From Escherichia coli (lineage in GTDB: Bacteria; Pseudomonadota; Gammaproteobacteria; Enterobacterales; Enterobacteriaceae): 40,009 bases of DNA. Position numbers and translations under genes: made by a program. The notes beneath the pieces were generated by a model. That model ran no database searches and had not been told where the DNA came from. It was given only the letters and a program-made list of their open reading frames with translations. Each line of letters opens with the position of its first letter. Position 1 is the first letter of the stretch. Where the stretch lies: NCBI RefSeq assembly GCF_003334765.1, contig NZ_QOWT01000036.1. One strand, 5' to 3'. Positions 15,407 through 15,611 of the stretch are shown piece by piece.

Positions 15407-15446
15407 AGAACGGCGCAGGACATCACATTGCGCTTATGCGAATCCA

Positions 15447-15472
15447 TCAATAATGCTTCTCATTTTCATTGT
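15447..15472. promoter_or_regulatory. Candidate Fur box on the fepB promoter side
   Basis: caataatgcttctcattttcattg has aataat/attttc hexamer-like units. It is weaker than the entC-proximal box. Confidence 0.4.
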
Positions 15473-15563
15473 AACCACAACCAGATGCAACCCCGAGTTG
15501 CAGATTGCGTTACCTCAAGAGTTGACATAGTGCGCGTTTGCTTTTAGGTTAGCGACCGAAAAT

Positions 15564-15584
15564 ATAAATGATAATCATTATTAA
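15564..15584. promoter_or_regulatory. Fur box at the entC promoter
   Basis: taaatgataatcattattaaa: tgataatcattatt (15569-15582) matches the Fur consensus core tgataatcattatc at 13 of 14 positions, about 30 bp upstream of the entC start. Confidence 0.75.
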
Positions 15585-15611
15585 AGCCTTTATCATTTTG
15601 TGGAGGATGAT

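Follow-up and report, generated by a model that had tools for sequence, protein, structure and literature searches.

The fepB-entC spacer of the Escherichia coli DNA analysed here is very probably a divergent control region of the K-12 type, in which each promoter has its own Fur operator and the leader of fepB carries a 186-bp insertion. The spacer is 374 bp long and occupies positions 15238-15611 of the window (the whole stretch of 40,009 nucleotides that was analysed), within the enterobactin cluster. The product of fepB is the periplasmic ferric-enterobactin binding protein according to the RefSeq annotation of the identical MG1655 segment. Positions 15100-15750 match E. coli K-12 MG1655 and many other strains at 100% identity, and the region is the same locus as the fepB-entC region of Elkins and Earhart 1989 (J Bacteriol 171:5443) and of Brickman, Ozenberger and McIntosh 1990 (J Mol Biol 212:669). 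Compared with the published K-12 region it has the same two boxes, the same two footprints and the same 217-nt leader, with no sequence difference. Its two Fur operators, the promoters and the long leader are already known, having been mapped in 1989-90, and both the binding of Fur to two separate sites and the regulation of both transcription units by iron and Fur have been shown in the literature. What our analysis adds concerns the nature of the long structured leader, which is a strain-variable BoxC/TMECO insertion and not a conserved regulatory leader.

The window takes in every one of the cluster's three divergent Fur-controlled spacers. The other two, fepA-fes and fepD-entS, resemble fepB-entC in that they hold divergent iron-regulated promoters repressed by Fur. 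They differ in layout, since each has one footprinted stretch that serves both directions (PMC2189734), whereas fepB-entC has two separate operators about 115 bp apart. Matches to the Fur consensus at 3381-3399 and 12929-12953 overlie the published fepA-fes and fepD-entS footprints after coordinate conversion. Two small ORFs in the fepB-entC spacer, at 15241-15450 on the minus strand and 15356-15547 on the plus strand, were rejected as genes: they cross the repeat in the fepB leader and are missing wherever the repeat is missing.

Fur boxes, footprints and promoters

The whole window was scanned with the classical 19-bp Fur consensus, GATAATGATAATCATTATC. Only four positions match it at 15 or more of the 19 bases, two of them in the fepD-entS spacer (12929 and 12935) and two in the fepB-entC spacer. 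The latter two fall within the ranges 15447-15472 and 15564-15584, in which an earlier note on this DNA had placed a Fur box toward fepB and another next to entC; both boxes are real, and both matches lie inside published footprints. In 2,000 dinucleotide shuffles of the 374-bp spacer the mean number of matches at this level was 0.002, against the 2 observed, and two such matches never occurred together in one shuffle (0/2,000). Fur box 2 is the centre of a phased array, with neighbours of 13/19 at 15558 and 15570 in a 6-bp phase, and begins about 6 nt past the expected entC start. Fur box 1 differs from the 19-bp consensus at four positions and lacks phased neighbours in the consensus scan, and it covers both the fepB −10 element and +1 (15454).

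Published binding data place Fur on each of the two boxes. Chen et al. (PMC2189734) found that the fepB/entC region "has two distinctly protected regions" and reported DNase I footprints of Fur at 623939-623969 for fepB and at 624054-624102 for entC. These coordinates were converted by way of the entC cluster at 624072, which PMC2189734 calls −36, giving an entC start of 624108 and a window offset of 608,496. The converted footprints cover 15443-15473 (fepB, 31 bp) and 15558-15606 (entC, 49 bp), and one box is enclosed by each. In the same work two Fur dimers bind the fepB oligonucleotide (apparent Kd 8.6 nM); fepB is assigned 16.7 bits with 2 predicted sites, and entC 23.1 bits with 4 sites. 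Calling the fepB box the weaker of the two was fair in the light of these bit values, although the 19-mer scores are equal, and also when one box with a 31-bp footprint is set against the phased array and 49-bp footprint at entC.

A second paper (PMC5020551) describes "two non-overlapping Fur boxes", with Fur box 1 given as AAAATGAGAAGCATTATT and Fur box 2 as ATAAATGATAATCATTAT, and these sequences equal the two boxes located in the window. There, box 1 is said to overlap the fepB promoter elements and box 2 to lie downstream of the entC +1, −10 and −35, and the cloned fepB/entC region on plasmids drives iron-controlled expression in both directions. For this region PMC5020551 gives credit to Brickman et al. 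1990 and to Elkins and Earhart 1989. In K-12 and CFT073 alike, fepB and entCEBAH belong to the direct Fur regulon.

We infer the transcription start sites from secondary sources and from promoter geometry. The entC start is expected near 15557-15559, given the geometry of its promoter and the separation of the two start sites, which Brickman in 1990 reportedly placed 103 bp apart. For fepB the start was set at 15454 because the "entire 5′ UTR" of PMC4666370 spans −217 to +24, the extent given for the cloned construct in the supplement of that work (Wang et al.). Read on the minus strand, the fepB promoter would then consist of TTGCAT, a 17-nt spacer, GAAAAT, 7 nt and a start A. The hexamers of both promoters are weak, and for this reason neither mapped promoter was called when the sequence was scanned with a simple consensus promoter and terminator search. 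The scan gave three promoter matches, all inside the AT-rich palindrome of Fur box 2, which were rejected as promoters.

Table. Features of the fepB-entC region, in window coordinates
Feature	Position	Strand	Basis and remarks
fepB CDS	14281..15237	-	GTG start at 15237; ORF list and RefSeq annotation of the identical MG1655 segment
SD-proximal fepB leader	15238..15263	-	Common to long and short alleles; Shine-Dalgarno AGGAAG from 15250 to 15245
Leader insertion, 186 bp	15264..15449	.	Alignment with ZH193; TAA at both ends, so position ambiguous by 3 bp
TMECO #7, type A mm	15306..15341	+	Exact match 15306-15340; PMC4666352 Table 1, 624579-624614
TMECO #8, type B	15368..15403	-	Inverted partner of #7; exact match 15369-15403; PMC4666352 Table 1, 624676-624641
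Fur box 1, fepB operator	15449..15467	-	GAAAATGAGAAGCATTATT, 15/19; within the 15443-15473 footprint; overlaps fepB −10 and +1
fepB transcription start	15454	-	217 nt upstream of GTG; from the PMC4666370 5′ UTR construct; 8 nt downstream of −10
Putative fepB −10, GAAAAT	15462..15467	-	From start-site position and 17-nt spacer; invariant in 20 species
Putative fepB −35, TTGCAT	15485..15490	-	From conserved block GATGCAAGC, at near-constant distance to the box 1 anchor
Putative entC −35, TTGACA	15523..15528	+	GTTGACA unchanged in the 20 aligned species; precedes the box 2 anchor
Putative entC −10, TAGGTT	15546..15551	+	17-nt spacer; conserved block TTTTAGGTTA
Fur box 2, entC operator core	15564..15582	+	ATAAATGATAATCATTATT, 15/19; downstream of the entC start site
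entC CDS	15612..16787	+	Heads entCEBAH; RefSeq annotation of the identical K-12 segment

Conservation of the two operators across species

EntC-anchored loci were collected from 80 GTDB species, and 20 species from about 15 genera were aligned. Anchors for both boxes were found in 78 of the 80 loci, and over these roughly 78 species of Enterobacteriaceae the two boxes and the two promoters hardly vary. The usual spacer in the EntC-anchored loci measures 185-189 bp, with consensus matches at about −163 and about −48 from the entC ATG. Invariant blocks in the 20-species alignment are limited to box 1 with the fepB −10, the fepB −35, the entC −35 and −10, box 2 and the entC Shine-Dalgarno sequence, and the DNA flanking the two boxes is unconserved in these species. 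From Escherichia to Pluralibacter the 20 species share an invariant Fur box 1 core, CTCATTTTCA (within TAATGCTTCTCATTTTCA); the core of Fur box 2, AAATGATAA, is likewise invariant, and the block surrounding it, AAATGATAAT.ATT, is near-invariant.

Each box keeps its distance to the −35 element of its own promoter. Across the 78 species the box 1 anchor lies 31-33 nt from the fepB −35 (32 in most) and the box 2 anchor 42-45 nt from the entC −35 (44 in most). The distance from anchor to anchor is 113 bp in 57 of these species and 100-102, 159-160, 172 or 237 bp elsewhere. Near-fixed distances to the own −35 together with a variable distance between the boxes are the pattern expected of two self-contained promoter-operator modules. 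The earlier suggestion that the two divergent promoters are controlled through separate Fur operators is borne out by the "two distinctly protected regions", by the "two non-overlapping Fur boxes" and by the distance that each box keeps to its own −35.

A few loci depart from this layout. Klebsiella indica (L068:1047-1500) has a degenerate box 1 anchor (AATGCTGCTGGTTTTCA), and Fur box 2 is set apart from entC by some 265 additional bases; the fepB −35 block was not found in this locus, and the regulation of fepB may be altered in this species. The box 1 anchor was not found in the loci of Pantoea dispersa (L083) and of a record titled Enterobacter ludwigii (L084), where EntC is 60% identical, and these two loci show only adjacent consensus matches at about −117 and −111. 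The two-operator layout may be confined to the Enterobacteriaceae proper.

The insertion in the fepB leader

The earlier note had also expected a fepB leader of about 200 nt or more, which is correct for this sequence: the leader measures 217 nt by the PMC4666370 construct and has a very stable fold. The GC-rich repeat that it had seen in the leader is equally real: the TMECO pattern is matched exactly at two places. This sequence does have the long structured leader, but as a conserved property of fepB such a leader did not hold up, the insertion being carried by about half of the sampled E. coli genomes and by almost no other genus.

Holder et al. (PMC4666352) give the pattern of TMECO (formerly BoxC, or PIT) as 5'-CCCTCNCCC N3-6 GGGNGAGGG N3 GGGNGAGGG-3'. 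The leader holds two exact, inverted matches to it, against 0 expected in shuffles; published TMECO coordinates were converted by way of the MG1655 spacer, 624511-624884. With its inverted pattern pair and its deletion and variation among strains the fepB repeat is a catalogued BoxC/PIT/TMECO element (Bachellier et al.; Hoyne et al. 2000; PMC4666352), one of a family whose loci are described as unusually variable among strains (PMC4666352). The element matches a median of 14 places per genome, in weaker copies that lie for example in the gcvP-ygfF and yijF-gldA spacers, and is thus dispersed, intergenic, multi-copy and strain-variable, as members of BoxC/PIT/TMECO are. The fepB copy differs from these in lying inside a transcribed 5′ UTR, a few bases past the start site, so that it is made as RNA. 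The triplex proposed for TMECO, by contrast, concerns DNA: an intrastrand DNA triplex was formed by oligonucleotides in vitro, and in vivo DMS probing gave no support for it (PMC4666352).

The insertion begins 2-5 nt past the fepB start site. Its RNA is predicted to fold into one self-contained imperfect hairpin of about 175 nt (−91.3 kcal/mol, z = −6.1), and the SD/RyhB region lies outside the hairpin in this fold. RyhB pairs at the fepB Shine-Dalgarno sequence, as compensatory mutations have shown, and represses fepB translation (PMC4666370). A search of Rfam at a permissive E-value returned for the hairpin only sub-threshold microRNA-precursor matches, at 20-29 bits against gathering scores of 60-105. 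These matches, together with antizyme matches, were rejected as those of a generic long hairpin far below the gathering scores. With no Rfam family match above threshold, and with a structured segment that most species and half of E. coli lack, the leader does not behave as a conserved regulatory leader would.

The distribution of the insertion was surveyed in 5,426 complete E. coli genomes; these are a non-random sample, and "about half" refers to the database and not to the species. A 651-bp query was covered to at least 80% in 2,755 of the 5,426, the remainder matching it as two pieces that span 465 bp. Taken by itself, the element occurs near-complete in 2,721 of the genomes, and in 2,662 the insertion is absent, with the short junction in one piece; the latter include CFT073, O157:H7, O145 and ST131-type strains. 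Strain ZH193, with a spacer of 188 bp, differs from the window in this spacer by a clean 186 bp. The fepB leader of the short allele is about 31 nt long, and Fur box 1 stays at 15/19 in both long and short alleles.

The insertion is absent in E. albertii and in nearly all other genera. Because the short spacer is the family-wide state, the long form of K-12 is the derived one. In E. whittamii (L006:1212-1500) this insertion occupies the identical site, but only a short hairpin is left of its inverted TMECO pair and the spacer measures 288 bp; the insertion therefore either predates or crossed the species boundary, and is decaying. Within E. coli, the common short allele differs from the long allele in two bases beside the junction (GAAGT), and the E. 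albertii flank is alike (GTGAAGT), so that the common short allele is the older haplotype. The exact junction TAAGGTTAATGC on a K-12-type flank was seen in only 4 genomes (HH45, HH97, Z1323CEC0013 and Z1323CEC0015), whose spacer is the product expected from a precise loss of the 186 bp, or else a pre-insertion relic. A recent precise excision was rejected as the origin of the common short allele, given its GAAGT flank, as in E. albertii, and the exact junction in 4 genomes. From these sequences we infer that there would have been one old insertion, now a polymorphism, with rare precise loss.

A small variant of the insertion was observed in E. coli RM9975 (L085:200-567) and also in OkiPb01691, in which TMECO #7 is incomplete because 6 bp within it (AGGGTT) are deleted. 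This deletion is consistent with slippage between G-rich repeats.

Proposed regulation and alternative readings

The region would act through two back-to-back sigma-70 promoters, with the fepB start at 15454 on the minus strand and the entC start near 15558. By their geometry, Fe2+-Fur at box 1 would cover the fepB −10 and +1 and block RNA polymerase, and Fe2+-Fur on the longer box 2 array, just past the entC start, would block initiation or promoter escape. Under iron shortage Fur would depart and both transcription units would be made. The 217-nt leader is an ancestral leader of about 31 nt, made up of the 5′ end and the SD/RyhB region, that was split shortly after +1 by the insertion; after transcription, RyhB represses the translation of fepB at the Shine-Dalgarno sequence. 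The hairpin is judged near-neutral for regulation because of its patchy distribution: half of E. coli and most genera lack it. Fur still regulates fepB in CFT073, a strain with the short allele, and fepB control can therefore probably do without the long leader. The hairpin may have a modest effect on the stability of fepB mRNA.

There is next to no likelihood that the box at 15449-15467 is a chance AT-rich match and that fepB is controlled solely from the entC-proximal site. The four mismatches of box 1 and its want of phased neighbours would fit such a match, but chance would yield only 0.002 boxes per region, the core is invariant from Escherichia to Pluralibacter, and the box has its own DNase I footprint, on a site that binds two Fur dimers at nanomolar affinity as an oligonucleotide (PMC2189734); the published footprint refutes the chance reading. 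Granted two real operators, Fur oligomers at box 1 and at box 2 could still interact, looping or condensing the roughly 100 bp between them and repressing the two promoters cooperatively, which we consider improbable. Work cited by PMC5007355 used annotated binding sites to predict a Fur-dependent loop at fepB-entCEBAH, and such a loop would suit both the 113 bp between the boxes in most species and the spacing in the Pluralibacter lineage, which differs by 11-13 bp, or roughly one helical turn. Other lineages, however, keep both boxes with the spacing changed by +46/47, +59 or +124 bp, none of them a whole number of helical turns, and the footprints are distinct, with unprotected DNA in between (PMC2189734). 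The constant spacing is explained equally well by a lack of indels in a short inter-promoter region, and the helical phasing of box spacing in the 78 species gave no support for a phase-dependent Fur loop. Two operators that each serve their own promoter are the arrangement that we prefer.

The leader itself might be a selected device that tunes FepB, be it a 5′ stabiliser hairpin, an attenuator or roadblock, or a translational modulator, and we regard this as unlikely. Hairpins at the 5′ terminus protect mRNAs from 5′-end-dependent decay, and that of fepB, very stable at −91 kcal/mol (z = −6.1), begins about 5 nt from the mRNA 5′ end; the long allele is also common, in about half of the sampled E. 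coli genomes, and a decayed copy has been retained at the same site in E. whittamii. Yet the 2,662 E. coli genomes and almost all other genera in which the insertion is absent have a leader of about 31 nt, and in CFT073, without the insertion, Fur regulates fepB all the same. The insertion moreover belongs to a dispersed repeat family that is scattered over unrelated intergenic regions, at some 14 places in each genome; some strains have small deletions in it, and it leaves the SD/RyhB region outside the hairpin. Where PMC4666352 summarises earlier tests of PIT/TMECO, these are described as showing no promoter, terminator or RNA-polymerase effects. A near-neutral repeat carried in the leader accordingly remains our reading of the hairpin. 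Similarly doubtful is the proposal that the insertion changes the fate of fepB mRNA, either through a hairpin that blocks 5′-end-dependent decay or through G-rich DNA that slows transcription, and that, separately, the operators loop. Were the effect on mRNA fate real, there would be heritable differences between lineages in the amount of FepB and in the uptake of ferric enterobactin when iron is limiting.

The insertion defines two roughly equal allele classes in E. coli. Conclusions on the post-transcriptional control of fepB drawn in K-12, including predictions of sRNA targets in its 5′ UTR, may not transfer directly to strains of the B2 or O157 type with their leader of about 31 nt. The fepB-entC region also serves as a tool promoter and in the training of Fur-site models.

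Different insertions were observed in the same spacer elsewhere. Salmonella enterica subsp. arizonae (L020:1192-1500) carries one of about 120 bp between Fur box 2 and the entC Shine-Dalgarno sequence, and Klebsiella grimontii (L057:1189-1500) a different one, also of about 120 bp, between the two promoters. Both presumably resemble ERIC/IRU elements. Small repeats seem to have inserted into the fepB-entC spacer repeatedly.
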